Shown here piece by piece: positions 5,221 through 30,427 of a stretch of DNA of 30,427 nucleotides. The translations under genes were made by a program, and so were the position numbers. This DNA comes from Xanthobacteraceae bacterium (GTDB taxonomy: Bacteria; Pseudomonadota; Alphaproteobacteria; Rhizobiales; Xanthobacteraceae). The stretch's first letter is position 1. Each line of letters starts with the position of its first letter. The stretch lies in NCBI GenBank assembly GCA_036498105.1, contig DASXIG010000179.1, forward strand, positions 1 through 30,427. The letters run 5' to 3'. Under the pieces are notes generated by a model. The model made no database searches, had not been told where the DNA came from, and saw only the letters and a program-made list of their open reading frames with translations.

Positions 5221-6141
5221 CTACCGCCAGCGGCGGTGCACCCATAGCCATTGCTCCGGATGCTCGCGCACCCAGCCCTCGATCACCGCGGTGATCGCCT
5301 GCATGGTGCCTTGCACGTCGATCCTGCCTTCCGCGTCCCGCCGCGGCTCCACGCGTTCCGAAAGCTCGGCACGAAAGCGCTGGCGATCGGGCAGACGCAC
5401 GACACGGGTGCCATAGATCGGGCACTCCAAATGCCGGGCAAGACGGGCAATGAACGGGTTGGCCTTGCACGGGCGGCCGAAGAAGGTCACGTCCACGCCG
5501 TTGACGTAGTATTGATCGACGAGCATGGCGACGCGCCCGCCACTCTCCAGAATACGGGCGAGCTTGAAGGGCGCGTCAAGAGAGGTGGGCACGAGCGTCC
5601 CCATGCTGCCTCTGCGGATCCTGATGACGGCATCGCTCACCGCGCCGATGTTGGGCCGGCGATATAGGACGGTGGCATCGAGCGCAAACCTGGTCGCAAT
5701 GAGGGCCGGCAGCTCCCAGTTCGCGAGATGCGCGGCAAAGATCAAGGCCGGCTTGCCTCGCAAGCGCTCGAAGCCTTCCGCAGTATCGAGCGTGTAGGCA
5801 ATGTCGCCGGCCTCATGCCGCGGCGGCGGGAAGATTTGCAGGCGGTCGATGTGGGCGAATTCAGCCGCAACCCGCCCGAGATTGTCCCAGACGCCGCGCA
5901 GTATGTTCTCGATCTCGCCTGCCGACTTCTCCGGAAAGGCCGCGGCGAGGTTGGCGCGGCCAATGCGGTGCTCCTTGAGCCGCGGACCGGCGCTGCGCAT
6001 GAAGGCCGCGGCAAAATCGGACATCGCTTTCCGATCGATCGCACGGATCGCGCGCAGCGTTCCGACCGCGAGCCATCCGGCGAGCGTGTCGATGGCGGCC
6101 TTGAGTTCCCGCCCGGCGGGAAGGGCGTTAACGGAGATCAT
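5221..6141 (-). CDS. lpxXL: Lipid A very-long-chain fatty acyltransferase (LpxL/HtrB family)
   Basis: AHLANWE motif, MLVDQ, PEQWLWVHRRW; last gene of the acpXL cluster. Confidence 0.9.
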   Translation of the reverse strand: MISVNALPAGRELKAAIDTLAGWLAVGTLRAIRAIDRKAMSDFAAAFMRSAGPRLKEHRIGRANLAAAFPEKSAGEIENILRGVWDNLGRVAAEFAHIDRLQIFPPPRHEAGDIAYTLDTAEGFERLRGKPALIFAAHLANWELPALIATRFALDATVLYRRPNIGAVSDAVIRIRRGSMGTLVPTSLDAPFKLARILESGGRVAMLVDQYYVNGVDVTFFGRPCKANPFIARLARHLECPIYGTRVVRLPDRQRFRAELSERVEPRRDAEGRIDVQGTMQAITAVIEGWVREHPEQWLWVHRRWR

Positions 6142-6156
6142 GCGGGTTGCCGGTAA

Positions 6157-7179
6157 TCAAAAGCCGACGATGATCTTCCCGAACACCTGCCGGCTCTCCA
6201 GCCGCGCGAGCCCGCGGTCGAATTCGGCAAGCGGCACCACCGTGTCGATCACCGGCAACAGCCCGCTCGCCATCTTGGCCAGGCTCTCGCGGATGTTGCG
6301 CAACGAGGCGCCGAACGAGCCGATGATGCGATACTGCTGCCGAAACAGCTGCATCAGATTAATGGTGGCCAATGGGCCGGAGGTTGAGCCGCAGGTGACC
6401 AAGCGGCCGCCGCGCTTGAGGCAGAACAGCGAGCCGTTGAAGGTTTCTGCTCCCACATGCTCGAACACGACATCTACGCCTTTCTTTGCCGTGATCTTGC
6501 GAACGACGCCTTCGAAGCGTTGGGTGCGATAATTGATGACGTGGTCGGCACCGAGCGCCTTGGCCTTTGCAACCTTCGCATCGTCGCCGACCGTGGTAAT
6601 GACTCTGCATCCGGTCGCTTTCGCCATGAGAATGGCGGCGGTTCCGATGCCGGAGCCGCCGGCATGTACGAGCACGCTCTCGCCCGGCTCGAGCTTGGCG
6701 TTGTCGAAGAGCATGTGCTGCACCGTGGCAAAGGCGATGGGCGCGCAAGCAGCATCGCGCATGGAAACTCCCTCGGGGACAGGAAGAACCAGACGCGCAG
6801 GCATGTTCACGAGATCGCGCGCAAAACCATCGATATGAAATCCCATGATCCCGCCGACATTTTCGCAAAGATTATCGCGACCTTCCTTGCACGCCTTGCA
6901 GCTACCGCAGGTCAAGGCGCCGTACATGACAACGGGATCTCCCGGCTTGAACGTGCCGTCCGCCGATCCAACCGCAGCGATCTCGCCAGCGGCTTCCACG
7001 CCCACCACCACCGGCATCTTGCGCTTGGCGAAGGCCATGCCGCGATAGCCCCATAGATCGAGGTGATTGAGACCCACCGCTTTGACCGTGATCTGCACTT
7101 CCCCAGCTGCAGGCGGCGGCGGAGCCGGCTGGTCGGTCAGCTCGAGCTTGCGATCGGCCACCAGTGCAAGCGCCCGCAT
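6157..7179 (-). CDS. adhA2XL: MDR-superfamily zinc-binding oxidoreductase of the VLCFA cluster
   Basis: CGSCKAC...C structural Zn motif, HAGGSGIG nucleotide-binding motif; sits between fabF1XL and lpxXL as in rhizobial clusters. Confidence 0.85.
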   Translation of the reverse strand: MRALALVADRKLELTDQPAPPPPAAGEVQITVKAVGLNHLDLWGYRGMAFAKRKMPVVVGVEAAGEIAAVGSADGTFKPGDPVVMYGALTCGSCKACKEGRDNLCENVGGIMGFHIDGFARDLVNMPARLVLPVPEGVSMRDAACAPIAFATVQHMLFDNAKLEPGESVLVHAGGSGIGTAAILMAKATGCRVITTVGDDAKVAKAKALGADHVINYRTQRFEGVVRKITAKKGVDVVFEHVGAETFNGSLFCLKRGGRLVTCGSTSGPLATINLMQLFRQQYRIIGSFGASLRNIRESLAKMASGLLPVIDTVVPLAEFDRGLARLESRQVFGKIIVGF

Positions 7180-7182
7180 GGG

Positions 7183-8463
7183 TCAGGCAGGCTCACCGCT
7201 GATCACGAGCGAGACGTTCTGGCCCCCGAATCCGAAGGAGTTGGAAAGGGCGTGCCTGACTTTGGCATCGCGCGCCACTTTGGGAACAACGTCGAGCGGA
7301 ATTGCCGGGTCAGGCAGGTTGTAATTTATCGTTGGCGGCAGCCGCTGATGCTGCAATGTCAAAAGCGTGAATACCGCTTCGACCGCTCCCGCCGCTGACA
7401 ACGTGTGTCCGATCATGGATTTGTTTGACGAGACCGGGATGGATTTCGCGCGTTCGCCGAATACCGACGACATACCGATATATTCCATCTTGTCGTTCTC
7501 GGGCGTCCCTGTTCCGTGCGGATTGACGTACTCGATGTCGTCAGGCGTGAGCCCGGCATCCGTTATCGCATTACGGATGCAGCCGATAATCGCCTTGCCA
7601 TCGGGGCTCGATCGCGTGCGATGAAACGAGTCCGCCATCTCGCCGCACCCGGCGAGTGCGCCCAAAATCCTTGCCCCGCGCGCCTTCGCCGATTCATACG
7701 TCTCGATAACGAGGGCAGCGGCACCCTCCGCCATGACGAAGCCATCGCGATTTTTTGAGAACGGCTTTGCCGCTGCCTCCGGCGGATCGTTGGCCGTCGA
7801 GAGCGCCGAGAGGAGCGAAAAGCGGATCAGGCATTCCGGGTTCACCGAACCGTCGGTGCCGATGCACAGCGCCGCTTCGGCCTCTCCGCGCCGGAGCGCC
7901 TCGACCCCGAGCTGGATCGCGCTTGCGCCGGAGGCGCAGGCCGTCGATACCGAAATCGGTGAACCTTTGGTGCCGAAGCGATCGGCCAGGTGCTCGGCGA
8001 CCGAGCCGAGCAGGCAACGCTCGTGAATGGCGTGAAAACGCCCCGACGCGCTTGCACGCAGGAGATCCGGGTATCCTATGGTATCGTTCGCCCCTGATGC
8101 GGCGGCCAATGTATCGCGATGGGGCCATTCCATCTCGACCGGCGCAACCGCAAGAAACAAGGGGCCTGGAAAATCGCCCTTCGCGCCGATGCCGGCCTCG
8201 CTGATCGCCTCTTGCGCGGCGAGAGCCGCCATGCGCTCGCCCAGCTCGGTGGAGCAGAAGGGCTCCACCGGCAGGAAGTCGACCGTGCCTGCAATGGTGG
8301 TCTTGAGCGCTTCGTTTGCAAACCGGGTGATCCGATGAATGCCTGATTGGCCGGCGACCAATCTGGTCCAATTGTCCACCTTGCCTGTCCCCAGCGATGT
8401 GATCACGCCCATGCCGGTGACGACTACGGTGGGACGCCGGTTGCTGCTGCGTGCGGAGGCCAT
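7183..8463 (-). CDS. fabF1XL: Beta-ketoacyl-ACP synthase (catalytically intact)
   Basis: STACASG (Cys), NPHGTGT (His), KSMIGHT (His), SNSFGFGGQN. Confidence 0.92.
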   Translation of the reverse strand: MASARSSNRRPTVVVTGMGVITSLGTGKVDNWTRLVAGQSGIHRITRFANEALKTTIAGTVDFLPVEPFCSTELGERMAALAAQEAISEAGIGAKGDFPGPLFLAVAPVEMEWPHRDTLAAASGANDTIGYPDLLRASASGRFHAIHERCLLGSVAEHLADRFGTKGSPISVSTACASGASAIQLGVEALRRGEAEAALCIGTDGSVNPECLIRFSLLSALSTANDPPEAAAKPFSKNRDGFVMAEGAAALVIETYESAKARGARILGALAGCGEMADSFHRTRSSPDGKAIIGCIRNAITDAGLTPDDIEYVNPHGTGTPENDKMEYIGMSSVFGERAKSIPVSSNKSMIGHTLSAAGAVEAVFTLLTLQHQRLPPTINYNLPDPAIPLDVVPKVARDAKVRHALSNSFGFGGQNVSLVISGEPA

Positions 8464-8477
8464 GCTCGTCTTATCCT

Positions 8478-9671
8478 TCAGCTGGCCGCATCGAGCAATG
8501 CCATGCCCTCGCCCCGCCAGTGGCCGATCGAGGTCACGGCGATCTGGTCGACGGCACCGCCGTACGGCTGTTCCACTCCTGATGAATCCAAGGGCGGGAA
8601 CAGCTTGTGGTGACGAAGCATAATGGCGGCGATCGCAATATTCATAGCGAATTGAGGCTCAAAACCATGCCCGATATAGCTGCCGGTCGCCCGCACCGGC
8701 AAGCTTGGAAGGCTCTTGAGCCAGGCGCGCTCCTCCCGCGTTCCTGGCTCCGTGCCGGTTGCGCCCGATATGACTGCCACCGGGGCGGTACTGCGCAGCG
8801 CGGCGAGTTGCTGCCACATGCGCGCGAGCGCCTCAGTCACGGACGACGGCGGTCGGCGCGATCGTTCGGACAGAACCGCAAGCAGCCGCGCCACCGGTCG
8901 TGCGCCGCGCGCTTGCGCGTGGGCGCGCTCTTCCAGCACCAGGAAGGCCCCGATCGAGCCGAGTACCATGCCAGGCGAGTCGGTGCGCTCCCACACCGGC
9001 TCGAACGTGCCGCGCCGCAAATATCCGCCGGCATCGTAGAGCAACAGCAAGTCCTCGCGCTCGCCGTTGTATGAGCCGCCTACAAGCGCTAGCTCGCTTT
9101 GTCCGGCGCGGATCCGCGCCGTTGCAACGCGAACCGCGTCGACGCCCGCTCCTTCCTCGCCCATGAAACTGCGGGAGGAACCGGTGACGCCGTGCACAAT
9201 GGAGATGTTGCCGGCGAGCAGATTGGAAAGCTGCGCCAGGAAAAGCGTCGGCCGCAGATCGCTCATGAGCCTTTCATTGAGAAATGCACCCGGGTTTGCC
9301 GCCTTCGATTTGTTGGTCAGAACCGAGCCGTCGACTGCGACGTCGCGTTCCCCGCCGGCGGCGGCAACGATCATATCCATGCGCGCAAGCAACTCGGCAT
9401 TGCCCTTGACGCCAGCATCCTCGAGCGCAAGGCCGGCCGCATAAGTGCCGATCCGCTGCCAAGCTTCCATCTGGCGCTGGTCGCCCTTCTTCGGGATCTG
9501 GCGATCGAGTACGAGTGGCGCCAGGGGATGAACCAGATAAGGCGCAAATGTCTCGGCATCGACCTTGATGCGCCGCTCTGCGAATCCCTGCCGGTGCGCT
9601 TCGGGTCCTTCACCCAAGCACGACACAATCCCGATGCCGGTGATCCAGACTTCCCTCGGCAAATCAGCCAT
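8478..9671 (-). CDS. fabF2XL: Beta-ketoacyl-ACP synthase-like protein with degenerate active site
   Basis: KAS fold N-terminus MADLPREVWITGIGIVS, FLAQLSNLLAG; cluster position. Start moved from 9755 to ATG 9671, which overlaps the fabZXL stop by 8 nt. Confidence 0.88.
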   Translation of the reverse strand: MADLPREVWITGIGIVSCLGEGPEAHRQGFAERRIKVDAETFAPYLVHPLAPLVLDRQIPKKGDQRQMEAWQRIGTYAAGLALEDAGVKGNAELLARMDMIVAAAGGERDVAVDGSVLTNKSKAANPGAFLNERLMSDLRPTLFLAQLSNLLAGNISIVHGVTGSSRSFMGEEGAGVDAVRVATARIRAGQSELALVGGSYNGEREDLLLLYDAGGYLRRGTFEPVWERTDSPGMVLGSIGAFLVLEERAHAQARGARPVARLLAVLSERSRRPPSSVTEALARMWQQLAALRSTAPVAVISGATGTEPGTREERAWLKSLPSLPVRATGSYIGHGFEPQFAMNIAIAAIMLRHHKLFPPLDSSGVEQPYGGAVDQIAVTSIGHWRGEGMALLDAAS

Positions 9672-10137
9672 TGGCGAGCGCCCCAACCGGGAACTCCAGG
9701 ATGGTGGCCATCTTTTCCATGTTGGTGCGAAATTCGGGGTTCGGGAATTCCACAAGCCGAAACGTTATTTCGGCGTTGCAGGCGAGCTTGCCGTCGCAGC
9801 GGATCTCCGCCTTGGTGATGGCGAAGCCCGAGCCTTCATGCAGGAGCTTGGCCGAGAGATCAAGTTCCTGCCCCGGCTTCACGAAGGAGCGCAACTTTGC
9901 TTCGCGCACGGCTGCGAAGAACGGCATGCGCGTGAAGCGCGTGATTGCGATCAGCAGCCAGCCCGAGGTCTGCGCCATGGCCTCGATGAGCAACACGCCC
10001 GGCATCAAGGGAAATCCGGGAAAGTGCCCCTCGAAGATAGTGGAGGCGAGCGGCACCCGCGCCTGGGTTCGTATGATCTGGTCCGAAAGCTTGAGCTCGA
10101 CAATGCGGTCGATCAGCTGAAAGTATTCGAGGCGCAT
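9664..10137 (-). CDS. fabZXL: 3-hydroxyacyl-ACP dehydratase (FabZ family)
   Basis: FQLIDRI, FEGHFPGFPLMPGVLLIEAMAQ hot-dog fold motif. Confidence 0.92.
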   Translation of the reverse strand: MRLEYFQLIDRIVELKLSDQIIRTQARVPLASTIFEGHFPGFPLMPGVLLIEAMAQTSGWLLIAITRFTRMPFFAAVREAKLRSFVKPGQELDLSAKLLHEGSGFAITKAEIRCDGKLACNAEITFRLVEFPNPEFRTNMEKMATILEFPVGALANG

Positions 10138-19857: not shown

Positions 19858-20004
19858 CGTAGCCCCGCGTGCGGCAGCGAAATGCGGGGCCGTACCGGAT
19901 TTCGCTCCGCTCATCCGGACTCTTCCACCGTAGCCCACATGAGCGTAGCGAGCGTAGCGAGATGCGGGATCCCCCCGGATTTCGCTTCGCTCATCCGGGC
20001 TACG
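19858..20004. repeat. Cluster of GTAG-type REP-like palindromes (two inverted pairs, BIME-like)
   Basis: CGTAGCCC... left arms at 19858 and 19929. CCGGATTTCGCT(C/T)CGCTCATCCGG right arms at about 19895-19918 and 19975-19998, the last ending GGCTACG. A 9-nt GAGCGTAGC tandem duplication lies in the second left arm. Between convergent genes. Confidence 0.8.
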
Positions 20005-20974
20005 AAGTCTCTTGTCTCAGGCGTTCAATCGCCGTTGCGGACATCGGCTGTCCGGCGAGCCTGGCGGCGTAGATCGCAGCGCCGAGGCATGGCGACATGA
20101 TCGGCGCCCTCAGGTCGTAGCTCTCGGAATATTGCGCGATGTGCCCCCGCAGCGGAGCGATGATCAGATCTCCGGCGTTGAAGATGCCGCCGGAATAGGA
20201 GAGCGGGACGGCTTCGTCGGCTCCGAATTCCAGCGCTTGGCGTACCGCCTCGACAATGGCCGCGAGCTCGCACGCAGCACGCTCGAAAATTCGGGTAGCC
20301 GCGATATCGCCGTCGCGCGCGGCGCGGGCGACAAGCTCGGAGATGGCGGCGATGCCGCGGCGCGAGAGGTTGCTGCCGAGCCTGGCGCAGATATCGATAT
20401 CGCTATTCAAACCGAGAGTTTTCTTGAACATGGCATGGAGCGGCCCCTTGCTCAGGCGGCCGTCGCTCATGCGCGTGAAGACGTTCAGCCCCTGCACCGC
20501 GATCCAGTAGGCCGAGCCTTCATCGCTGAAGGTTTCGCCCCAGCCCCCGGCGCGGGCGGACCTGCCGTTGCGCTCGCCATAACCGATCGAGCCCGTGCCG
20601 GCGACAATGTTGATTCCGTCTTCGCCGCCGAGGGAGCCTGCCCAGGCGCAGACCATGTCGTTCCCGCACCGGTAGCGGCGATGACCGAGCAGCGGCTCCG
20701 GGAGGCGATCGAGCAGCACCTGGGCCGCGCTATCTTCGCCGTAGGCGGGTAGCCCGAAGAAGGCATGCGCGATTCCGCTCGCGGTGATCCCTGTCTTGTC
20801 GAGCAATGCAGCCAGCCCGCGCGCCAGCACGTCGCGCACGCCATCAATCCCGACCTGGAGATGATCGGATGTCGGCCCTTCGTGCGAAGCGGCGAGCCTG
20901 CCGTCGGTATCGAGCAGAACCAAGCGCGTCTTCGTGCCGCCCCCGTCGACGCCGAGGAAGAAGCCGGACCGCAT
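20000..20974 (-). CDS. BadF/BadG/BcrA/BcrD-type sugar kinase (N-acetylhexosamine kinase-like)
   Basis: LGVDGGGTKT, NDMVCAWAG, AGTGSI, GGWG..FSDEGSAYWI. Confidence 0.88.
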   Translation of the reverse strand: MRSGFFLGVDGGGTKTRLVLLDTDGRLAASHEGPTSDHLQVGIDGVRDVLARGLAALLDKTGITASGIAHAFFGLPAYGEDSAAQVLLDRLPEPLLGHRRYRCGNDMVCAWAGSLGGEDGINIVAGTGSIGYGERNGRSARAGGWGETFSDEGSAYWIAVQGLNVFTRMSDGRLSKGPLHAMFKKTLGLNSDIDICARLGSNLSRRGIAAISELVARAARDGDIAATRIFERAACELAAIVEAVRQALEFGADEAVPLSYSGGIFNAGDLIIAPLRGHIAQYSESYDLRAPIMSPCLGAAIYAARLAGQPMSATAIERLRQETS

Positions 20975-20978
20975 GGCG

Positions 20979-22154
20979 TCAGCCGATAGCGTGAATGCGC
21001 ACGCCCTGCACGACGCGATTCACCGTGCCTGAGCTGTTGGGGTTATCGGGCGAAAGGCCGCGGCTGATCGCCGCCTCGAATGCGAACATCTGCGGGGCGG
21101 CAATGAACGGGATCAGGAGATCAACATCCTCTGCATGCTCCATGGAGGGGATCAGGATTTTGTCTATGCCCGCCGGTATACCGTCATCGCGCGCAGCGAT
21201 GGCCAGGAGGCCCCCTGCCCTCCCCTCGCGCCGGATCTCCTGCAATAAATCCAGATCATATTTGTAGGTATGAGGCCGGTTGGACAGAAAGATCGTTATC
21301 AATGTTCGATCATTGATAATGGCCTTCGGCCCATGTCTGAACCCCATGGGGGAATCATGGACCGCTATCATTCCGCCATCCGTAAGCTCGAGCAGCTTAA
21401 GCGCCGCCTCGCGAGCAAGGCCTTTGAAGATATGACTCCCAAGATAGGCCACGCGCTCAAATCTCCGTGCGGCGAGTTTTTTCATCGCGTCGGCTTGGGT
21501 CCAGATCACGCTCTCGGTGGCTTGTGCTAACCGTTCGATTCGAGCTGCCATACGGTCGCCTGAGAGCGAGGCAAGCGCAGCGTAGGTCATGCAGCTGAAG
21601 CTCGAAGTCATGGCAAAGCTTCGGTCGTGGGTCTCCTCAGGCAGCAGAATGGTCATGCCCTTGCCGGATTCCGTGACCTGGCGGGCGAGCGCGCCATCGC
21701 GATTGCAGGTGATCGCAAGGTGATGGATCTCGCGCACGAGCGTGTTCGCAAGACCGACCGCAGCCACGCTCTCCGGGCTGTTGCCCGATCGGCCGAATGA
21801 AACGAGCAGCGTAGGCGTGCCGGCCTCGAAATAGAGAAACGGCGCACAGACCAGATCGGTGGTGGGGATCGCCTCCACCCGGCACGGCAACCGGGCGGCC
21901 AGATAAGGTGCGAGGCAGTCGCCGATGAAGGAGGACGTGCCGGCGCCCGCGAGGATCACGCGCGTCGCCGAATGCTCGAGCAGCGCGCGAAGGAAGCCGT
22001 GGAGAGCATCTTTGTGCGTGAGCAGAAGCTCGTGCGTCTTGCGCAACATCGCCGGTTGCTGGGCGATCTCGCGTGCGGTCCACCGCGCGCCGAGCGCCTC
22101 AAGCTCGCTTTCGCCGCGGCCGAGCAGATGAGGTTGTCCGGTTTGCTGGCTCAT
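20979..22154 (-). CDS. agaS: SIS-domain AgaS-family galactosamine-6-P deaminase / tagatose-6-P isomerase
   Basis: REIAQQP, GAGTSSFIG, SFGRSGNSPES, SFAMTSSF, KLLELTDG, GFRHGPK, PDNPNSSGTVNRVVQGV. Confidence 0.88.
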   Translation of the reverse strand: MSQQTGQPHLLGRGESELEALGARWTAREIAQQPAMLRKTHELLLTHKDALHGFLRALLEHSATRVILAGAGTSSFIGDCLAPYLAARLPCRVEAIPTTDLVCAPFLYFEAGTPTLLVSFGRSGNSPESVAAVGLANTLVREIHHLAITCNRDGALARQVTESGKGMTILLPEETHDRSFAMTSSFSCMTYAALASLSGDRMAARIERLAQATESVIWTQADAMKKLAARRFERVAYLGSHIFKGLAREAALKLLELTDGGMIAVHDSPMGFRHGPKAIINDRTLITIFLSNRPHTYKYDLDLLQEIRREGRAGGLLAIAARDDGIPAGIDKILIPSMEHAEDVDLLIPFIAAPQMFAFEAAISRGLSPDNPNSSGTVNRVVQGVRIHAIG

Positions 22155-22193
22155 TATCTTCCAAGTGAGCGTCCGGTCACGATTGCGTGCGAG

Positions 22194-22796
22194 CTAATAT
22201 CCCTGCGGACCGAACACCTCGATGCCGAATCGGCGCTCGAGCGCGCGGCCGAAGCGGTATTTCATCTCCGGGCCTTCATAGGTCATGGGGGGCGTGCGCA
22301 GGAAGCCGCTCTCGGGTTCGACCCGCAGCACCGTGAACGAGGGGCCATCTTCCGCCACGATGGCGGGCAATGCCCGCTCGAGCTCGTCGAGCTTGTCGAT
22401 GGTGCGGGCGCGCGAGATGCCCGCTGCCCGCGCTATTGCCGCGTAGTCCGTGCGTCCCTCATTCACCATGGGGAGCGCACCGACCGTCTGGTACACGCCG
22501 TTGGCGACGACGAAATGCTTCAGGTTCTTCGCGCTCTGCGAGGCTTCCGTCAGCAGGCAACCCAGGTTCATGCATAGCGAGCCATCAGCATTGATCAGCC
22601 ATACCGGCACGTGCGGAAGCGAGAGCGCAAGCCCGAGCGCAAAGCTCGCGGCAAAGCCCATCGCGCCGTGCATATAGAAGCTGTCCTCGCTCCTGGTCGC
22701 AGCCCACCACTCGTTCGCGGCCATCCCGAGGGCGCACACCGTAACTGCTTCGCCGCGACTGCGCGCAAGCAAATCGACCGCATTGCGCGCTCTCAT
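22194..22796 (-). CDS. TPP-dependent decarboxylase beta subunit (ComE / phosphonopyruvate decarboxylase-like)
   Basis: FYMHGAMG, NADGSLCMNLG...ANGVY (variant GDG..N TPP motif); ATGA overlap with the alpha gene. Confidence 0.8.
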   Translation of the reverse strand: MRARNAVDLLARSRGEAVTVCALGMAANEWWAATRSEDSFYMHGAMGFAASFALGLALSLPHVPVWLINADGSLCMNLGCLLTEASQSAKNLKHFVVANGVYQTVGALPMVNEGRTDYAAIARAAGISRARTIDKLDELERALPAIVAEDGPSFTVLRVEPESGFLRTPPMTYEGPEMKYRFGRALERRFGIEVFGPQGY

Positions 22797-23338
22797 TGCC
22801 GCGCTCCCTCGCCCTTCACCAGCCTGCGGGTGAGAAAGAGCACGAACGGCCGCTTCTGCAAGCGACAGGTCTCGAAAGCGTCTGGAATGCGGGGGATGTC
22901 CTCGGCGCGATCGATGACGTGGTAGGGAAAATCGTAGGTCTCGAGCAACGGGATGGTGCGGCGCCCCTGGACCTCCTGGTAAATGCGATGATCATCGATC
23001 GAGCCGCGCTGGCTCACCATCAGGAACACCGGGATCTGATGGCGAAGGTTGAGGGTTGCGAGCTCGCCCGTGCAGGTGAGCAGCCCGGTCGCACCCATCA
23101 GCGCCACCGCGCGCACGCCGCCAAAGAATGCGCCGCTGCAAATGGCAATGGCTTCCGCTTCGCGCGCTACCCGCACATGCCTGATCTGATTGTCCGCGGC
23201 GATCCGCTCGATCAGCGGCGCGATCCAGTCGTCGGGGAGCGAGGCCGCGAGCCGGACGCCGCATTTCGTCAGCTGCGCGTGAATCTGCGCGGTCACATCC
23301 GAAGGGGAGCTCGGGAGAGATCGAGTGTTCTCGTTCAT
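22793..23338 (-). CDS. TPP-dependent decarboxylase alpha subunit (ComD-like)
   Basis: ASLPD, HVRVAREAEAIAICSGA, QIPVFLMVSQRG. Confidence 0.8.
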   Translation of the reverse strand: MNENTRSLPSSPSDVTAQIHAQLTKCGVRLAASLPDDWIAPLIERIAADNQIRHVRVAREAEAIAICSGAFFGGVRAVALMGATGLLTCTGELATLNLRHQIPVFLMVSQRGSIDDHRIYQEVQGRRTIPLLETYDFPYHVIDRAEDIPRIPDAFETCRLQKRPFVLFLTRRLVKGEGARQ

Positions 23339-23721
23339 GGGCCGGCCGCGATCACCTCGACTTCCACCAGAAACTCCGGCCGCGAGAAGCCAGAGACGAC
23401 CATCAGCGTCGAGGCCGGCGGCGGCTCGCCGATATAGACATCACGCACCGACATGTAGCCCTTCAAATGCTCGCGCGAGACGACGAAAGCATTGATGCGC
23501 ACTATATTGGCTAAGGTAAAGCCTGCATGCTTGAGCACTGCGCCGATGTTGCGGAAGCAAAGGTGGGTCTGCTCCTCGACCGTCTCCGGTACGCGGTCCT
23601 CAGTCGAGATGCCGAGCTGGCCGGAGCATACCAGAATGCGGCTGCCCGCGGGGATCTCCACCCCGTAGCTGTAGCGCGCGAATGGGGGCCGAATGCCCGG
23701 CGGAGTAATATATTTCATCAA
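23335..23721 (-). CDS. Rid (YjgF/YER057c/UK114) family protein, non-RidA subfamily
   Basis: YSYG, SGQLG, PPPAST (Arg of the PAR motif replaced), LVEVEVIA. Confidence 0.88.
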   Translation of the reverse strand: MMKYITPPGIRPPFARYSYGVEIPAGSRILVCSGQLGISTEDRVPETVEEQTHLCFRNIGAVLKHAGFTLANIVRINAFVVSREHLKGYMSVRDVYIGEPPPASTLMVVSGFSRPEFLVEVEVIAAGP

Positions 23722-23833
23722 GCTTTGCTCCGAATGGAGAACGAAAGCGGGCGGGAACAGGCCAGAGTCCTGCTATACCAGCGGCCGGAACAGAATGTGA
23801 GTCCGCGGCAATGAATCCGGGCAAGCTCAGGGA

Positions 23834-24658
23834 ATGGGCGGCGCAACAGTTGCGGGCGATTGCGTCATGAGAAGGAAGCGTTTCTGGGCGGAGCTCAGGT
23901 CAAGCGAGTTCTCCGGCCTCGATCCGGCGTCGACCATCGCCATCTTGCCGGTCGCCGCCACTGAGCAGCATGGCCCACATCTGCCGGTCATGACCGACAC
24001 CGCCATTGCGGAGGGAATGATCCAGACGGTGCTGGCCCGGCTTCCCGCAGATCTCGACGTGCTCTTCCTGCCCATCCAGATGATCGGGAAATCCAACGAG
24101 CATCTGCGTTGCCCTGGGACCATCACCTACAGCGCGGAAAATCTCGTCCGCATCTGGGTCGAGATCGGCGAAAGCATTCACCGCACCGGCTTGCGCAAGA
24201 TGGTGATTGTCAACTCTCACGGCGGCAATACCGATGTGATCGGGATCGTGGCGCGCGAGCTTCGTGTGCGGCACAACATGCTGGTGGCTACCACGCAGTG
24301 GCGACGCTTCGGCCTGCCGGTGGGCATCTACGCGGCATTCGATGCGAGCCACGGCATTCATGCGGGCGACATCGAGACTTCACTCATGCTCCACTTTCGG
24401 CCCGACCTCGTCGACATGGGAAAGGCCAAGCTGTTTCCCTCGGCGGCCGGCGAGATGGAGAAGGACTACAAGTATCTGCGTCCCGCTGGTCAGCACGGAT
24501 TCGGCTGGATCGCGCAGGACCTCAACCCTGATGGCGCCGTGGGGGATGCATCGGCCGCGAGCGCCGATAAGGGTCGCTTGACCGCCGAGCACCAGGCCGA
24601 GGGCTTCATCGGTTTCCTGCGCGACGTCGCTCGCTTCCCGCTGGACCAGCTGGCTTAA
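23834..24658 (+). CDS. Creatininase/creatinine amidohydrolase-family protein
   Basis: LPVAATEQHGPHLP..TD, SNEH, NSHGGN, HAGDIETS metal-binding motifs. Alternative start at 23867. Confidence 0.9.
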   Translation: MGGATVAGDCVMRRKRFWAELRSSEFSGLDPASTIAILPVAATEQHGPHLPVMTDTAIAEGMIQTVLARLPADLDVLFLPIQMIGKSNEHLRCPGTITYSAENLVRIWVEIGESIHRTGLRKMVIVNSHGGNTDVIGIVARELRVRHNMLVATTQWRRFGLPVGIYAAFDASHGIHAGDIETSLMLHFRPDLVDMGKAKLFPSAAGEMEKDYKYLRPAGQHGFGWIAQDLNPDGAVGDASAASADKGRLTAEHQAEGFIGFLRDVARFPLDQLA

Positions 24659-25314
24659 GGCATCACACGGTACGTCAGAATGTCGAACCTGGGCTCGGAG
24701 GAATTCTTCGAAGCGAAGCGGATGTTCGGGCTCGGGTCGGCCCCGCCGACGAGCGGGAATATACGCTGATCGCCGTCCGCCATCGAGCATTCCAGTCGTG
24801 CAGCGACGGAATTGCGGTTTCTGAGCACATCGAACAATCGTCCCGCATTCAATGGAAACCTTGCGCTCGGCGGCAGGTCGGTGGTGGTTTGCTGTACGCT
24901 TCTCTGCCGGATCATGGTCGTCATGCGCACGCCGTACCCGCCGGTGCCGAACGATTGGGTTGCGTGTCGCTGCGATTGGAACAGCACTGGTCCGTTCTGG
25001 ACGAAGTCGCATGGGCTGCCGGACATCAGGGGCAGGCACTGCGGTATGCCGTTCGTGTCAGTCACATCGAGGATGATGTCCGCACCGGTGGGAACAATCT
25101 CGGCGGTGCAGTTTTGCGGGCCTCCGTCGGCGGTCTGGCACGACCCCTCGGCGCGCAAGCCGATAGGGGCATCGACAGTCGTCGCAATGGTTTGAATGGC
25201 GACACAGGTTCCGATCTGCTTGATCGCGCCGGGCGGCAGTGATTGCGCGCATACCTGATCGACGCAGGCGCCCAGCAAGGCGAGCACGGCGAGACGACCG
25301 ATCCAGCTCCTCAT
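24655..25314 (-). CDS. Hypothetical exported or lipoprotein, Cys-rich
   Basis: N-terminal MRSWIGRLAVLALLGAC signal/lipobox-like segment; 8 Cys; fills the gap between two recognisable genes. No family recognised. Confidence 0.7.
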   Translation of the reverse strand: MRSWIGRLAVLALLGACVDQVCAQSLPPGAIKQIGTCVAIQTIATTVDAPIGLRAEGSCQTADGGPQNCTAEIVPTGADIILDVTDTNGIPQCLPLMSGSPCDFVQNGPVLFQSQRHATQSFGTGGYGVRMTTMIRQRSVQQTTTDLPPSARFPLNAGRLFDVLRNRNSVAARLECSMADGDQRIFPLVGGADPSPNIRFASKNSSEPRFDILTYRVMP

Positions 25315-25329
25315 GGCGCAGCACCTACT

Positions 25330-25404
25330 GTTAGCCTCGCATTGAGCGATGGCGAAATGCGCGGCTGGGCTCCCCGAAATTCGCTGTGCTCAATCCGGGC
25401 TACG
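25330..25404. repeat. Degenerate inverted pair of GTAG-type REP-like palindromes
   Basis: GTTAGCCTCGCATTGAGCGATGGCGAAATGCG ... CCCCGAAATTCGCTGTGCTCAATCCGGGCTACG, related to the 19858-20004 elements. Confidence 0.65.
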
Positions 25405-27355
25405 CAGGTAAGCGCGGGCGCAGCAGCCCCTTGATGATCTTGCGAGTGGGAGTCAGCGGCATCTCGCCGATAAGCTCGAGGCGCTCCGGCCATTTCATCT
25501 TGGCGACGCCATTGTTGTGCAGCCATTCGCAGATTTCCTCGAGCGTCACGCTCTCGCCCTCGCGCGACACCACGAAGGCGCAGGCCTTCTCGCCCATGAT
25601 ATCGTCGCGCATGGGCACGAGAGCCGATTGCAGCACCTTGGGGTGTTTGTCGATGAGCACTTCCACATCGACGGGATTGATTTTTATTCCGCCGCGATTG
25701 ATCAAGTCCTTCAGGCGGCCGGTGATCTGAAAATTGCCTTCGGCGTCGCGGCAGGCGAGGTCGCCGGTGCAAAACCAGCTGTCGGCAAATGCGACCCCGT
25801 TCGCCTGCGGATTGTCATAATACCCGGCGAAAACAGAGGGGCCGCGGATGTGCAATTCGCCGGAATCCGTATCGGCCACGGGCTGGCCAGCTTCATTGAC
25901 GATGCGCACTTCAATCTCCGGGGTGGGACGTCCGACGCATCCGCAGCGTACCCCCTCGGCATCGTCGGGCCGCGTGTTCAAACCCATGAACAGCTCGGTC
26001 ATCCCCCACATCTGCATGACCTTGCCGGCCGGCATTCGCTGCTGCAGCGCCTCGGCAAGCTGCGGCGGACACGTGGAACCGGAGATCGTCGCAAGGCGGA
26101 GAGATGCGAGGTCGGCCTCCTGCAAGAGCCCGGCCTTGAGACAAGCGGCGACATGGGCCGGCGCGGCGAACAGAAGCGTCGGCCGGCCTTGCACAATGGT
26201 CTGCGCGAACAGGTCGGGCCGGAATGCCGGCAGCAGCAGCTGCGTGGCTCCGACCGAGAGCGCGAAGTTGATGATGCAGATGCCGAACGCGTGCGTAAAC
26301 GGCGCTCCGCTCATGAGGATGTCGTTGCCGCGGAGCTCATAGAGCGGTCCGCACAGGCGGTTGTTCGCCAGCATGGTGTAGGAGCTGTGGACCACCGCCT
26401 TCGGCGCGGCGGAGGTCCCGGAGGTGAAGCAGAGGATTGCCGGATCGGCCGCCACCCCTGGGTTGCGGATATCCTCGAACGGGCCGGTCTCGATCAGCTG
26501 CTGCAATGAGAGCGTGCCGGGTCGCGCGGGGCCCCCGATAGTTACGATGTGCGCGAGACTGTGGACCTCGTTGCGCAACGCGAGGAACATTTCCACCGGC
26601 ACATACTCGCCGACGGGAGGGCCGCAGATGGCAAGCCGCGCCCTCGCGTGGCGCAGAAGCGGCGCCATCTCGCGCGCGCGGTAGGGCATGTGCATGGGCG
26701 CCACAATCGCGCCCATCATGGTCGCGGCAAAATAGGCGAGCATGAACTCCGGCACGTTCGGAAGCTGGACGGCGATGACGTCGCCCTTGCGCAGACCGAG
26801 CGCGGTAAGCGCCCGCGCAAGCCGCTCGGCCCGCCGCCAGGCCTCGCGGTAGCTCAACGTCGCATCGGGCGCGACGATGGCCGGCTTGTCGGGCGTCTCG
26901 CGCGCGAAGCGCGCGAGCCAGCGCGGGACGGTATCCCCGTTCCAGTGGCGCTGCTCAAGCATGCGCTCGACATGCGCGGGCACAAATTCGACCCCTTCGC
27001 GCAGACGCTCAGCTTCGGGGCTGAGTGCAAAGCGCTCCTCTCGACTCACGTAGCGCTCTTCCCGATAGCGTTTGCCTGCACCTAGGCCGAGTATGCGTTG
27101 ATAATGGCCGGTGCGAAAGCGGCGATGCTCCATGATGATGCGGATGGTGCGCGCCTGCTCGAGCGAAAGCCCCAGGCGTGCCCCGATCTCCGCATCCGAC
27201 ATGCCGAGATCGGCGCGCTCGCGGTCGATGATATCGAACTGCTTGAGGCGGACCGGGTCGCCGCGACGGACCTGGATGTTGTTGGAGAGCCGAAAGACGA
27301 GGTCGCCATAGCCTGCAATCATGCTCTCAGTGACGCCGTACTTCTGGGCGGGCAC
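25400..27355 (-). CDS. Acyl/aryl-CoA ligase (ANL adenylate-forming) with an N-terminal HTH-like extension of about 125 aa
   Basis: FTSGTSAAPK P-loop, WGMTE, TGDL, GRLKDLINRGG, terminal TRKIIK Lys; closest to cyclohexanecarboxylate-CoA ligase-like enzymes by recall. N-terminal GMSDAEIGARLGLSLEQARTIR. Confidence 0.85.
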   Translation of the reverse strand: MPAQKYGVTESMIAGYGDLVFRLSNNIQVRRGDPVRLKQFDIIDRERADLGMSDAEIGARLGLSLEQARTIRIIMEHRRFRTGHYQRILGLGAGKRYREERYVSREERFALSPEAERLREGVEFVPAHVERMLEQRHWNGDTVPRWLARFARETPDKPAIVAPDATLSYREAWRRAERLARALTALGLRKGDVIAVQLPNVPEFMLAYFAATMMGAIVAPMHMPYRAREMAPLLRHARARLAICGPPVGEYVPVEMFLALRNEVHSLAHIVTIGGPARPGTLSLQQLIETGPFEDIRNPGVAADPAILCFTSGTSAAPKAVVHSSYTMLANNRLCGPLYELRGNDILMSGAPFTHAFGICIINFALSVGATQLLLPAFRPDLFAQTIVQGRPTLLFAAPAHVAACLKAGLLQEADLASLRLATISGSTCPPQLAEALQQRMPAGKVMQMWGMTELFMGLNTRPDDAEGVRCGCVGRPTPEIEVRIVNEAGQPVADTDSGELHIRGPSVFAGYYDNPQANGVAFADSWFCTGDLACRDAEGNFQITGRLKDLINRGGIKINPVDVEVLIDKHPKVLQSALVPMRDDIMGEKACAFVVSREGESVTLEEICEWLHNNGVAKMKWPERLELIGEMPLTPTRKIIKGLLRPRLPA

Positions 27356-27367
27356 GAGCTTTTCTCG

Positions 27368-28294
27368 CTATTTGGCCGGTGCCGCGGCCCCCGTCGGCCG
27401 TTGCGCGCGCGCGGCCTCGCTGCGCAGGATGGGATCCGCGAGTGGCGCTTTGGTCGCGATCGGACACACCCGCATGCACTCGAAGCATTGCCCGAACATG
27501 GCATGGGAGCCGGTCGAGAGCTTGTAGAAGAGGAGTTTGCTTTCGAGCGCCAGCATGTCGTCGAAATCCTGCGGATCGTTCTGGCGCATGGCTTCTGCCA
27601 GCACTTTGGGCATGGCCTCGAACTGCTGGCTCATCTCGGCGCATGCCGCCATATCGTAGTACATTTCGGCCTGCTGCCCGTGCTCATCGAGCTTGCCTGA
27701 GAGGCATTGGACCGGACAGAATTTCATGCACGGCGTCTTGCCTACCTCGCGGTACATCGCGACGCAGGAGGGAGCCGGACACGGATTCTCCTTAAGCGGC
27801 TCATCGGGGGCAAGGGTGAGCTCGGTAAAGACCGACGCGAAGTACATGTAGCCGAACTGCGGATGCAGCAGGATGTCTCCGGCGAGCGAACGGGCGCCGA
27901 GACCAGCGAGCTCCGCGTGCAACTTGAGCGACTGGAACGGCACGCGCGCGCCGGCCTCGCTGTCCATGTCCGGCGGACAGTAGACGGCCGGAATGCCGAA
28001 GGTATGCTCGATGTAGAAGGCAAGACCATAGGCGATCTTGTAGGCGCGGCCCTCGGTCGAGCCGAAATAGGTCAGCGCCTTGGCGGAGACGCCCCAGGAG
28101 CCGCGGGTGTTGCCGCCCACTCCGATGGAAACGACCGACTTCACCTTCGGCATCAGATCCGCCGGGCGATGGCCCGCTGGTGCGACCCGGTTGATCGCTT
28201 CCAGGTCGGCGATCCCCGCGCAGAGCGCGCCTTTGCGCAGGCAGTAGTCCAGCACCTTGCGCTTGGCGGCGGCTGCATCGAGGGGTTTTTTCAT
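27368..28294 (-). CDS. QueG/reductive-dehalogenase-fold cobalamin- and 4Fe-4S-binding protein
   Basis: GIADL, P.DLMP.VKSVVSIG, HAELAGLG...LLHPQFG..FASVFTEL, and Cys motifs C-x4-C-x11-CxxxCP-xx-C and C...CxxCxxxCP. No TAT signal. Start ATG 28294. Confidence 0.8.
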   Translation of the reverse strand: MKKPLDAAAAKRKVLDYCLRKGALCAGIADLEAINRVAPAGHRPADLMPKVKSVVSIGVGGNTRGSWGVSAKALTYFGSTEGRAYKIAYGLAFYIEHTFGIPAVYCPPDMDSEAGARVPFQSLKLHAELAGLGARSLAGDILLHPQFGYMYFASVFTELTLAPDEPLKENPCPAPSCVAMYREVGKTPCMKFCPVQCLSGKLDEHGQQAEMYYDMAACAEMSQQFEAMPKVLAEAMRQNDPQDFDDMLALESKLLFYKLSTGSHAMFGQCFECMRVCPIATKAPLADPILRSEAARAQRPTGAAAPAK

Positions 28295-28337
28295 GCCTTG
28301 GCGCTCCAGCCTTGCCGGCACGGTGAGTCTAACAAGA

Positions 28338-28407
28338 CGATTGCCTCTGACGCAATCGGCGGTCGCTCCGTAGCAAATGCCGAAAGAGAGCGAGGCAGGC
28401 GCCTCGC
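28338..28407. promoter_or_regulatory. Two inverted repeats in the divergent promoter region
   Basis: CGATTGC-N7-GCAATCG (28338-28358) and GCGAGGC-N4-GCCTCGC (28390-28407). Confidence 0.35.
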
Positions 28408-28524
28408 CCTACGAACTGCTCGCGTTTGTGCGGGCAATGCCGCAACTTTTTGCTTTGCAAACGCCACGGGGGGAGGCAACAATCGAGCGCCGGGGCCCAA
28501 TCCCACATTCTGGCGCGAGGGAAC

Positions 28525-29706
28525 ATGGATATGGCGTTTTTCAACCGGGTATTAGCCGCCGCGGCGCTGTGCACTGTCGGAGGGGCGTTTGCAGCCAGCG
28601 CGCAGGAGAAGCTCAAGCTCGGGCTCATTTCAACCTTGTCAGGCCCACCCGCCGTCATCGGTCAGCAGCAGCGCAACGGGCTCAGTCTCGGCATCAAGCA
28701 ATTGGGCGGCAAGCTGGGCGGACGTGAGGTCGAGCTGATCGTCCAGGACGACGAGCTCAAGCCTGACCTGGCGATCACCAAGGTCAAGGCCATGATCGAG
28801 CGCGACAAGGTCGATTTCCTGGTCGGGCCGGTGTTCTCCAATATCCTGCAGGCCATCCTGAAGCCGGTCGTTGACCACGATGCGACTCTGATCAGCGCCA
28901 ATGCCGGCCCTTCGAGCTATGCCGGGAAGGAATGCAGCCCGAATCTCTTCGTCACCTCGTATCAGAACGATCAAGTCCACGAAGTGCTGGGCAGGCATGC
29001 CCAGGACTCCGGAATGAAGCGGCTGTTCCTGATCGCCCCGAATTATCAGGCAGGCAAGGATGCCATGGCCGGCTTCAAGCGGCAGTTCAAAGGCGAGATC
29101 GTGGACGAGGCCTTTGTGCCGCTGGGACAGCTCGATTACTCAGCCGAGCTGGCCAAGATCGCGAGCGTTAGCCCGGACGCGATTTTCGTATTCTTGCCAG
29201 GAGGCATGGGCGTGAACTTCGTCAAGCAGTTCCGGCAGGCGGGGCTCGCCGACAAGGTCATTTTCCTGTCCGCCTTCACGGTCGACGAAGGCACATTGCC
29301 CGCCCAGCAGGATGCCGCCATCGGCTTTTTCGGCGGAGCGAATTGGGCTCCCAATCTCGATAACCCGCAGAACAAGGCGTTCGTCTCTGCGTACGAAAAA
29401 GAGTTCGGGGCAGTCCCCGCGACCTATGCGTTTCAGTCCTACGACGTTGCGATGCTGATCGACAGCGCGCTCAAGGAGGTGAAAGGGGATCTTTCCGACA
29501 AGGCGAAATTGCGCGCCGCGTTGCGCAAGGCCGATTTCAAATCCGTGCGCGGCAATTTCACGTTCAACAACAATCACTATCCGATTCAGGATTTCTATCT
29601 GGTCAAGGTCGCCAAGCGGCCGGACGGCAAATTCCAGACCGAGATCGTCAAGAAGGTATTCGAGAACTACGGGGACCCGTACGCGTCGGAATGCCCGATG
29701 AAGTGA
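28525..29706 (+). CDS. Branched-chain-amino-acid-type (Liv family) ABC substrate-binding protein, aromatic-acid-binding type
   Basis: Signal peptide, KLGLISTLSGP, DDELKPD, PNYQAGKD. Start ATG 28525 with GAGGGA RBS. Ligand class is inferred by recall. Confidence 0.88.
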   Translation: MDMAFFNRVLAAAALCTVGGAFAASAQEKLKLGLISTLSGPPAVIGQQQRNGLSLGIKQLGGKLGGREVELIVQDDELKPDLAITKVKAMIERDKVDFLVGPVFSNILQAILKPVVDHDATLISANAGPSSYAGKECSPNLFVTSYQNDQVHEVLGRHAQDSGMKRLFLIAPNYQAGKDAMAGFKRQFKGEIVDEAFVPLGQLDYSAELAKIASVSPDAIFVFLPGGMGVNFVKQFRQAGLADKVIFLSAFTVDEGTLPAQQDAAIGFFGGANWAPNLDNPQNKAFVSAYEKEFGAVPATYAFQSYDVAMLIDSALKEVKGDLSDKAKLRAALRKADFKSVRGNFTFNNNHYPIQDFYLVKVAKRPDGKFQTEIVKKVFENYGDPYASECPMK

Positions 29707-29707
29707 T

Positions 29708-30427
29708 TCACTCGCGCCGATCGACGATGCGCGGCGCTTTGATGCTCGCTTCGAATTCCTTGGCGATGGTGCCGAGCGGTAGCGGTACAATGTCCGCGCT
29801 CAGCTCAAACGTGCGCCTGATTGCATTCGATAGATCGAGCACCGCGGCCTGCGCATCGCAGTCGCGCCTGATCTCGACGCAGACCCGCAACACGTCCTCC
29901 GACCGCACCGTCACCGCCTCGCATTTGAAATCATTGACCGCCCGTTGCCGAAACAGCAGGTCCTCGAACTCGGCGTGGCCAATGTTCACGCCCTTGATCT
30001 TGAAGAAGCCGCTGGTGCGATGGGCATGGCGCAAGACCGGAAACACCGAGAACGGGCCGTTGCCGCGGACCTCCGTGTCGCAGGTAACGAGGTCGCCGGA
30101 CATCCAGCGCAGGAATGGGGTGACGTTGTTGGTGAAGAGCGGGGTGACGACGAGCGCGCCGGCCTTTCCGTCGGGCACCGGTTTCCCTGTGCCGGGCTCA
30201 ATCACCTCGATGTAGAACAGATCGGTCCAGACGCGGAATCCAGCGGCCTCCCCGTCCTCGGCGCCCATCATGCCTGCTTCCGTCATCCCGAATGAATCGC
30301 GCAGCCGAGCGCCCCACATCATCTCGATCTTCTCACGTTTGGCCTGCGAGATCGGCTCTGCCGAGCAGATCACGAGCTCGACCGAGCCGCGGGAAAGCTT
30401 CTCCCCATCCTGATCGGCGAGATTGGC
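29708..30427 (-). CDS. Phenylacetate-CoA ligase (PaaK)-like protein, 3' part only (continues past the right edge)
   Basis: Frame open to the window end (ANLADQDGEKLSRGSVELVICSAEP), DSFGMTEAG, PFLRWMSGD, FFKIKGVN. Confidence 0.85.
   Translation of the reverse strand, partial: ANLADQDGEKLSRGSVELVICSAEPISQAKREKIEMMWGARLRDSFGMTEAGMMGAEDGEAAGFRVWTDLFYIEVIEPGTGKPVPDGKAGALVVTPLFTNNVTPFLRWMSGDLVTCDTEVRGNGPFSVFPVLRHAHRTSGFFKIKGVNIGHAEFEDLLFRQRAVNDFKCEAVTVRSEDVLRVCVEIRRDCDAQAAVLDLSNAIRRTFELSADIVPLPLGTIAKEFEASIKAPRIVDRRE

Follow-up and report, generated by a model that had tools for sequence, protein, structure and literature searches.

A conserved gene pair joins a separate branch of the class III cobalamin/Fe-S superfamily to a ligase with a small N-terminal module

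What is the function of a gene pair in which one member resembles the cobalamin (B12)-dependent, iron-sulfur (Fe-S) containing reductases QueG and RdhA and the other is a ligase extended at its N-terminus by a segment of no recognised family? This question is raised by a locus of a Xanthobacteraceae bacterium (assembly GCA_036498105.1), found in a stretch of 30,427 nucleotides of contig DASXIG010000179.1 (positions 1 to 30,427, hereafter the window). The two genes, here named gene A and gene B, constitute a real, conserved and uncharacterised pair, in which gene A adds a branch to a known superfamily and the arrangement with its partner is new as well. The original prediction, made from the DNA letters of the window, described two co-oriented genes lying 12 nucleotides apart, and this is borne out by the coordinates of the open reading frames (ORFs) on the minus strand. 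The pair consists of the following features:

27368-28294, minus strand: gene A, 308 amino acids, cytoplasmic member of the QueG/RdhA superfamily (from profile, structural model, alignment, and ribosome-binding site and start)
27368-28321, minus strand: longest ORF of gene A
27356-27367, minus strand: spacer of 12 nucleotides separating the stop codon of gene A from the start codon of gene B, read from the sequence
25400-27355, minus strand: gene B, 651 amino acids, GTG start
26951-27355, minus strand: N-terminal module of gene B, residues 1-135, with a helix-turn-helix (HTH)-like pattern and an Arg-rich tail
25400-26950, minus strand: adenylate-forming domain of the ANL type in gene B (acyl/aryl-coenzyme A (CoA) ligase; from Pfam, motifs and solved relatives)

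The likely true start of gene A is the ATG at 28294, where its homologues also start and which has a GGAG sequence 9 nucleotides 5' of it, and its stop codon is the TAG at 27368-27370. Because the spacing between the two genes is so tight, co-transcription and possibly coupled translation are suggested.

When gene A was searched as a single sequence little was recovered: there was no Pfam match at E <= 0.01, the PDB search was uninformative (best E 0.25) and in NCBIfam only short sub-threshold matches to the QueG and reductive dehalogenase (RDH) models were obtained. Two profiles were used, one of the close family (A1) and a wide one (A2) that takes in relatives of 25-40% identity. Profile A2 matched in the PDB the structures of PceA (E 4e-18 and 3e-14), QueG (6e-16 and 8e-16) and NpRdhA (2e-7). 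An AlphaFold model built with 20 close homologues, with a predicted local distance difference test (pLDDT) score of 59, was replaced by one based on a 45-sequence alignment which included the relatives of 25-40% identity and reached a pLDDT of 88.9. With this model all 46 Foldseek matches in the PDB at E <= 1e-3 were PceA, QueG or NpRdhA. CblC came next at ranks 47-50, below the threshold, and no flavin nitroreductase was among the 46 significant matches. In the AlphaFold DB/Swiss-Prot set only QueG and RdhA were matched, with QueG on top.

The protein can be divided (numbering of P0001) into a B12-type core of approximately residues 15-175 and a ferredoxin-like part of residues 181-287. The latter carries eight conserved cysteines (C181, C186, C198, C202-P, C227, C279, C282 and C286-P), which never vary in the close family and are conserved to 90% or more in the wide one (alignments A1 and A2). 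They would be enough for two [4Fe-4S] clusters, with a spacing that is non-canonical. The segment most conserved with QueG and RdhA, residues 134-172, is also the only part aligned by the QueG and RDH models and by the solved QueG and PceA chains; its equivalent in QueG and RdhA forms part of the cofactor-binding core. The gene A product would presumably bind a corrinoid, and since its own genome encodes a CobN above the family cut-off the organism appears to be able to make cobalamin. Under the definition given by Payne et al. (PMC4646009), gene A truly belongs to the class III cobalamin/Fe-S superfamily. The assignment to the QueG/RdhA superfamily with two sets of 4Fe-4S ligands, already proposed in the original prediction, is therefore upheld by the profile, by Foldseek and by the eight cysteines.

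Within this superfamily gene A is neither QueG nor RdhA and forms a separate branch. Against the QueG model (TIGR00276) it scored 25.8 bits, the cut-off being 200, in a match covering residues 136-210 only, and against the RDH model (TIGR02486) it scored 16.5 bits, with a cut-off of 160.35, whereas real alphaproteobacterial RdhA homologues scored 85-187 bits. There was no match to PF13486 in gene A. QueG is characterised by a D-Y-H motif and a catalytic Asp, D100-Y101-H102 and D130 in the Streptococcus thermophilus enzyme (PMC4646009). In the profile alignment the D-Y-H positions fall on G99-L100-A101 of gene A and the catalytic Asp lies next to R126, so that the motif is not matched. Moreover, gene A ends approximately 20 residues past the second Fe-S motif, without the C-terminal helical-repeat domain of QueG, and Foldseek aligns it only to QueG residues 1 to about 200-267. 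No twin-arginine motif was found in its N-terminus. Among the 80 gene A loci that were fetched for comparison no membrane-anchor family is recurrent, no search with an RdhB model having been made. The absence of the QueG signature and of a twin-arginine translocation (TAT) signal had been noticed before, and the view of gene A as cytoplasmic, non-QueG and non-respiratory agrees with its sub-cut-off scores and with the clade that it forms.

That clade was obtained in a quick maximum-likelihood search with Shimodaira-Hasegawa-like approximate likelihood ratio (SH-aLRT) values as the only support. Gene A and its close homologues form a clade of their own (SH-aLRT 100) nested among distant relatives, QueG and RdhA fall elsewhere in another clade (97) and a further set of paralogs makes up a third (96); two rows of the tree, QueG_L106 and RdhA_L096, are mis-extracted ORFs with very long branches and are to be ignored. 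The phylogeny that had been proposed as a check therefore separates gene A from true QueG. Nor is gene A the only copy, as a canonical QueG (429-478 bits) is encoded beside gene A in four of the five complete carrier genomes; in its own genome, an assembly which is 70% complete, no QueG scored above the cut-off.

The complete carrier genomes (G001-G005) hold in addition 2-10 further weak QueG-like matches each, several of them in tandem (for example G002 1039360-1043701 and G004 750540-759197). QueG/RdhA-like paralogs thus seem to have multiplied greatly in the Alphaproteobacteria that carry gene A.

The gene A family is narrow. An exhaustive phmmer search of 1.84 billion representatives gave 248 clusters at E <= 1e-3, and the family was present in 435 of the 185,579 species genomes searched. 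About 800 homologues share 65-93% identity with gene A; none of them has a Pfam domain and in JGI they are labelled 'QueG' or hypothetical. The carriers are almost all uncultured Alphaproteobacteria (Rhodospirillales, Defluviicoccus, Xanthobacteraceae and others), together with a few Beta- and Gammaproteobacteria.

What accompanies gene A throughout is the module at the N-terminus of gene B. In all 80 loci gene A is directly followed by a sequence homologous to the first 95 or so residues of gene B (43-88% identity). In a separate, evenly drawn sample of 301 Alphaproteobacteria, matches of the module profile (A3) and of the gene A profile (A1) were confined to the same 11 genomes, at 14 places for each profile, with neither in the remaining 290. 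All 14 pairs were adjacent and on the same strand, 18-70 nucleotides apart. The genomic coupling of gene A and the module is obligate.

The module is fused to a full ligase (about 650 amino acids) in most of the 80 loci. In 12 loci it is a free-standing ORF of 101-106 amino acids, measured from the conserved block, and in eight others (L048, L059, L063, L067, L069, L076, L085 and L087) it is fused to a degenerate ligase of about 470 amino acids, as at L048:6904-8322. This remnant keeps the first quarter of the AMP-binding domain and is without the P-loop, the A8 hinge motif and the C-domain, and it looks like a pseudo-ligase kept next to gene A. In the Rhodospirillales clade with the free module a normal-length ligase heads the same co-directional row of genes. 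Small module-like ORFs are also found 3' of gene A relatives at 33-38% identity (hhalign probabilities of 88% and 95%), and at one of these loci a separate ligase gene follows right after the module-like ORF. Moreover, the C-terminus of a distant gene A relative, P0170, was aligned to the module by hhalign with 81% probability (45% for P0159, BLASTP being weak for both), which is suggestive of a module homologue fused to the reductase-like protein itself. Because the module is strictly adjacent whereas the ligase may, depending on the lineage, be detached, degenerate or missing from the searched flanks, the conserved core is gene A plus the module, and the ligase is a frequent, ancient and detachable third part. 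The pairing that had been proposed for the two whole genes is strongly conserved, and it gives way for the ligase in those lineages.

In gene B about 145 residues precede the AMP-binding domain without a significant family match. Residues 42-75 or so have an HTH-like sequence pattern, followed by a tail rich in Arg and Lys, and gene B had been described as an HTH-fused ligase. No HTH family was significant for the module, the best being Sigma70_r4 with 13.4 bits against a cut-off of 24.1 (E 0.057). The module profile gave in the PDB a best E of 0.041, for a designed Xre-type DNA binder, and also matched MBF1 and EL222, all of them sub-threshold; a search of the ESM Atlas with the module gave no usable match. 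A prediction of the complex between gene A and the module reached an ipSAE of 0.82 (0.81, 0.85 and 0.82 in the individual runs), the best control reaching 0.21. The predicted interface is large and involves residues 134-149 of the B12-type core of gene A and residues 201-204, 216-240 and 278-285 of its ferredoxin part. Eleven of the 17 invariant residues of the module lie within it (hypergeometric p = 0.004), and the basic tail is buried there. Gene A and the module would accordingly be in physical contact in this model. The complex prediction, together with the strict adjacency and the fusion variants, favours a docking or cap subunit of gene A over a transcription factor, and this is how the supposed HTH fusion is better read.

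The remainder of gene B is a ligase, as predicted. Pfam AMP-binding covers residues 148-513 (E 3e-82) and AMP-binding_C residues 564-639 (E 6e-8), and across 50 full-length orthologues the ANL motifs A3, A5, A7, A8 and A10 show little or no variation. As all the core motifs are intact, activity of the ligase is to be expected. Among solved structures its closest relatives are DhbE, PchD, BasE and EntE (E 1e-65 to 1e-54), with benzoate-CoA ligases at 5e-56. In NCBIfam gene B falls below every equivalog cut-off, the best models being those of fatty-acid-CoA and cyclohexanecarboxylate-CoA ligases, and for this reason no substrate can be assigned. An aromatic or alicyclic acid is plausible from these relatives, and the activating group is probably CoA rather than AMP.

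How could such parts work together? In the explanation that we prefer, and to which we give an even chance, gene A and gene B form a two-protein cytoplasmic enzyme in which an acid activated by the ligase is reduced by Co(I) chemistry. Gene A would be a reductase of the class III cobalamin type, with a nitroreductase-like corrinoid-binding core and two [4Fe-4S] clusters. The first 100-135 residues or so of gene B would form a dedicated small subunit packing on gene A at both its B12 core and its ferredoxin part, where it may take the place that the C-terminal domain of QueG has over the active-site pocket and help to close it. Since this module is fused to a catalytically intact adenylate-forming ligase, it would tether the ligase to the reductase. 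The ligase would convert a carboxylic acid, most likely aromatic or alicyclic, to an acyl-AMP and then probably to a CoA thioester, and the activated acid would be handed over to the reductase. There, electrons from a low-potential donor would pass through the two [4Fe-4S] clusters to bring the cobalamin to Co(I), and a reductive elimination would remove a leaving group such as a halide or an oxygen function from the activated acid. Such a loss of a substituent, which the original prediction had proposed, is a putative reaction.

Several observations weigh against this explanation. The case for the corrinoid, for binding and for catalysis comes from sequence and models. For cobalamin bound base-off and in contact with the proximal cluster, as expected of a class III enzyme, the indications are indirect, namely the core segment of residues 134-172, the fold and CobN. 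A single conserved Tyr above the corrin is a feature of the class III superfamily (PMC4646009). In gene A its position can be aligned only ambiguously, to Y98, which is invariant in the close family, aligns to a PceA Tyr, lies two columns from QueG Tyr-101 and is not conserved in the wider family. The ipSAE value of the complex is a mark met by 58 of 80 solved complexes and by 2 of 110 mismatched pairs, but these calibration counts apply only approximately because alignments of our own were supplied for the prediction. The model was moreover built without cofactors, and the module may occupy a pocket that is empty only for want of a cofactor or substrate. As the ligase is degenerate in eight loci and detached in 12, adenylation in cis is not essential to the pair of reductase and module. 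Finally, in the 80 loci no electron-donor gene is conserved near gene A and the neighbourhood gives no consistent hint of a substrate.

A bolder version of the two-protein enzyme can be offered only tentatively, as a possibility at well below even chances. According to it the gene A family, the subunit of about 100 amino acids and the tethered ligase would make up an undescribed class III cobalamin enzyme, which would be the third branch of the superfamily with a function of its own and common among uncultured Proteobacteria of soil and sea. The substrate of its Co(I) would be an acyl-adenylate or acyl-CoA held on the enzyme, in a reaction that is neither dehalogenation nor epoxyqueuosine reduction. 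This could be the reductive deoxygenation or dehydroxylation of a ring substituent, or an attack on the activated carbonyl giving an acyl-cobalt intermediate.

Other explanations of the pair have to be weighed. Gene A might be a strict catabolic reductive dehalogenase, removing halogens from an aromatic acid at the level of the CoA thioester as a cytoplasmic analogue of NpRdhA and BhbA. PceA is the nearest match of gene A in both fold and profile, the ligase is similar to enzymes that activate aryl acids (4-chlorobenzoate-CoA ligase among them), and in one complete genome a Pfam 'Dehalogenase' gene is located two genes upstream. In addition, all 10 other gene A carriers of the 301-genome sample are among the 35 of 301 genomes with RdhA-type genes (E <= 1e-20), but this is a correlation only, among related genomes, and not independent evidence. 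We nevertheless regard a dehalogenase of this kind as unlikely, given the low score against the RDH model, the lack of a PF13486 match and the position of gene A outside the RdhA clade; the Tyr/Arg pair of RdhA is not identifiable in it either, and its own genome (70% complete) has no RDH match. Alternatively, the gene A product might be without corrinoid, serving as an Fe-S electron-transfer or redox partner (or one with Fe-S and flavin or another cofactor) on an ancestral nitroreductase-like fold. This fold is common to flavin nitroreductases and to the cluster-free CblC, and such a role would account for active-site residues of QueG and RdhA that are not recognisably conserved and for the atypical spacing of the cysteines. 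However, the segment that gene A shares best with QueG and RdhA is residues 134-172, the significant PDB matches are all B12 proteins with no flavin nitroreductase among them, and the genome appears able to make cobalamin. A corrinoid-free protein is on this balance quite improbable.

The module rather than gene A is central to the remaining alternatives. If it were a DNA-binding HTH, the ligase or the free small protein could be a one-component 'trigger enzyme' that regulates transcription in response to the acid or the acyl-adenylate in the manner of BirA. The pattern at residues 42-75, the weak matches to Sigma70_r4, the designed Xre-type binder, MBF1 and EL222, and the Arg/Lys-rich tail would fit such a regulator, but no HTH family reaches significance and most of the invariant residues are placed in a predicted protein-protein interface. 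A module that in the sample is never away from gene A, and always just 3' of it on the same strand, would be unusual for a regulator, and a fusion to the reductase itself is suggested in P0170; a trigger enzyme is for these reasons very unlikely. A role in the modification of nucleic acids, with gene A acting, as QueG does, on a modified nucleoside in tRNA or some other RNA, the module binding the nucleic acid and the ligase adding or activating a carboxylate, might be imagined because only two characterised relatives are nearest to gene A, QueG being one of them, and its extra C-terminal domain has been proposed to bind tRNA (PMC4646009), and because the module is basic and HTH-like. The patchy distribution (11 of the 301 Alphaproteobacteria), the several copies or paralogs in some genomes, the catabolic neighbours, the canonical QueG already present in carriers and the burial of the basic tail in the predicted interface all speak against it, and we consider this role scarcely credible.

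The comparison with known systems places the pair among familiar parts in an unfamiliar arrangement. QueG (TIGR00276; PDB 5d08, 5t8y and 5d6s) shares with gene A a nitroreductase-like corrinoid core followed by a two-cluster ferredoxin part, a cytoplasmic location without a signal peptide and a similar size up to the second Fe-S motif. It differs in its C-terminal helical-repeat domain, instead of which gene A has a separate small module predicted to pack on it. RdhA/PceA (TIGR02486, PF13486; PDB 4uqu and 8q4h) has the same cofactor-binding core and Fe-S architecture and gave the best profile and Foldseek matches, but gene A is about 150 residues shorter, has neither the N-terminal cap region nor the TAT signal and has a ligase as its partner. 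In lifestyle the nearest analogues are NpRdhA and BhbA (PDB 4ras and 6zy1), cytoplasmic class III B12 enzymes from the aromatic-acid catabolism of aerobic Alphaproteobacteria. These act on free acids, have no ligase or small-subunit partner and are more weakly matched (E 2e-7). BhbA carries a fused NAD(P)H reductase. Both are proteins of approximately 700 amino acids with a duplicated, vestigial B12 domain (PMC12219181). CblC/MMACHC (PDB 3som and 5uos) has the same corrinoid-binding nitroreductase-like fold as gene A; it differs by the lack of Fe-S clusters, by much weaker matches and by its role in cofactor trafficking.

Over its whole length the ligase domain of gene B can be aligned with DhbE, EntE, PchD, BasE and the BadA-type enzymes (PDB 6e8o, 7tyb, 3o82 and 4eat), but none of these aryl-acid adenylating enzymes and benzoate-CoA ligases has the N-terminal module of about 135 amino acids. 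An adenylate-forming enzyme with an N-terminal HTH-like extension is found in the ligase-repressor fusions of the BirA type. The extension of gene B is unlike these in that it strictly co-occurs with a reductase gene, exists also as a free protein and is predicted to bind protein and not DNA.

Full-text searches of the literature gave no description of the gene A family or of its pairing with a ligase, in agreement with the statement in the original prediction that no such pathway had been described. The nearest reports were the QueG structure papers and also a survey of RdhA in cold seeps, outside the coverage of which the gene A family falls. The characterised functions of class III B12 proteins are three, organohalide reduction, epoxyqueuosine reduction and B12 processing (by the cluster-free CblC), and each of them gave unusual cobalt chemistry. 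Study of the pair could reveal a new kind of B12-dependent reduction of activated carboxylic acids in soil and marine bacteria that live aerobically. Annotation is affected as well, as the relatives of gene A are now labelled 'QueG' or 'hypothetical' and the extension of the ligase would be mislabelled as a regulator.

The genes around the pair vary from locus to locus. When the neighbours in the 80 loci were clustered, no family besides the reductase-ligase pair occurred in more than 13 loci. With no third conserved gene, the deduction of a pathway from gene context was dropped. The recurrent minority neighbours are FAA-hydrolase-family enzymes, a PaaK-like ligase, acyl-CoA dehydrogenase, binding proteins and QueG/RdhA-like paralogs, which are typical of aromatic or acyl-CoA catabolism. 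On one complete chromosome from a metagenome-assembled genome (locus L107, G078:C1:1397000-1412000) gene A is directly preceded by an MTHFR-like gene, the Pfam 'Dehalogenase' gene and a second ligase with an AMP-binding domain (ORFs 5247-6215, 6286-7548 and 7049-9166). The MTHFR-like gene is a possible link to one-carbon (C1) or methyl-transfer chemistry.

In the window itself the pair is flanked by the following features:

28295-28524, no strand: intergenic region that separates gene A from the divergent gene of the binding protein, from the gene coordinates
28525-29706, plus strand: ABC-type solute-binding protein of the Peripla_BP_6 family (Pfam E 1.6e-81), divergent from gene A
29708-30427, minus strand: C-terminal 239 amino acids of a PaaK-like adenylating enzyme (NCBIfam PaaK-type matches), cut by the end of the window
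24655-25314, minus strand: ORF of 219 amino acids directly 3' of the ligase, with a signal-peptide-like N-terminus

Promoters are probably located within 28295-28524. Of the two genes flanking the pair, the upstream one, encoding the solute-binding protein, has a family match and the downstream ORF has none. This ORF (24655-25314) had no Pfam match and no counterpart among the 80 related loci and was excluded as a part of the system, being an orphan with a signal peptide that is absent from related loci. The divergent binding protein, which the original prediction had taken to be of an aromatic-acid type, and the PaaK-like ligase beside it are both present at the locus; as neighbours they are not conserved. 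The binding protein is 89% identical to its counterpart at the closest related locus, L011, and represents lineage-specific context outside the conserved core.

At L011, where gene A is 93% identical, the upstream row consists of a DUF3891 gene, two QueG/RdhA-like paralogs (paralog 1 of 378 and paralog 2 of 332 amino acids) and the PaaK-like ligase, followed by the divergent binding protein and the gene A/gene B pair. A tblastn search of the L011 genes against the contigs of the own genome located the continuation of the PaaK-like gene of 29708-30427 on contig C415. The same contig carries one more QueG/RdhA-like paralog and the end of a second, which continues on contig C228. The two contigs are small, and their copies of both paralogs and of the N-terminal portion that the PaaK-like protein lacks in the window are 86-90% identical to L011, where the corresponding copies of the paralogs (L011:1128-2264 and L011:2274-3272) were aligned to A2 by hhalign. 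Because the own-genome contigs carry these genes, the locus goes on beyond 30427 as it does in L011, and in this reconstruction the real locus comprises three QueG/RdhA-like reductase-like genes and two ligases. The C-terminal part of paralog 1 showed no resemblance to the module of gene B. The DUF3891 gene (L011:141-1046, plus strand) heads the row of paralog 1, paralog 2 and the PaaK-like ligase and may belong to that second module.

No RNA sequencing run containing the window stretch was found, and the stretch is present in many soil metagenomes. Further away from the pair, on the minus strand at 5221-9755, a lipid A acyltransferase, a zinc-type alcohol dehydrogenase and two beta-ketoacyl synthase genes form a row that looks ordinary and which we take to resemble the rhizobial gene cluster that makes the very-long-chain fatty acid found in lipid A. 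The region 20000-24658 contains a gene like those of BadF/BcrA-type ATPases or sugar kinases and an AgaS-family SIS isomerase. It also holds a split thiamine pyrophosphate (TPP) enzyme resembling the alpha and beta parts of sulfopyruvate/phosphonopyruvate decarboxylase and a divergent gene of the creatininase family.

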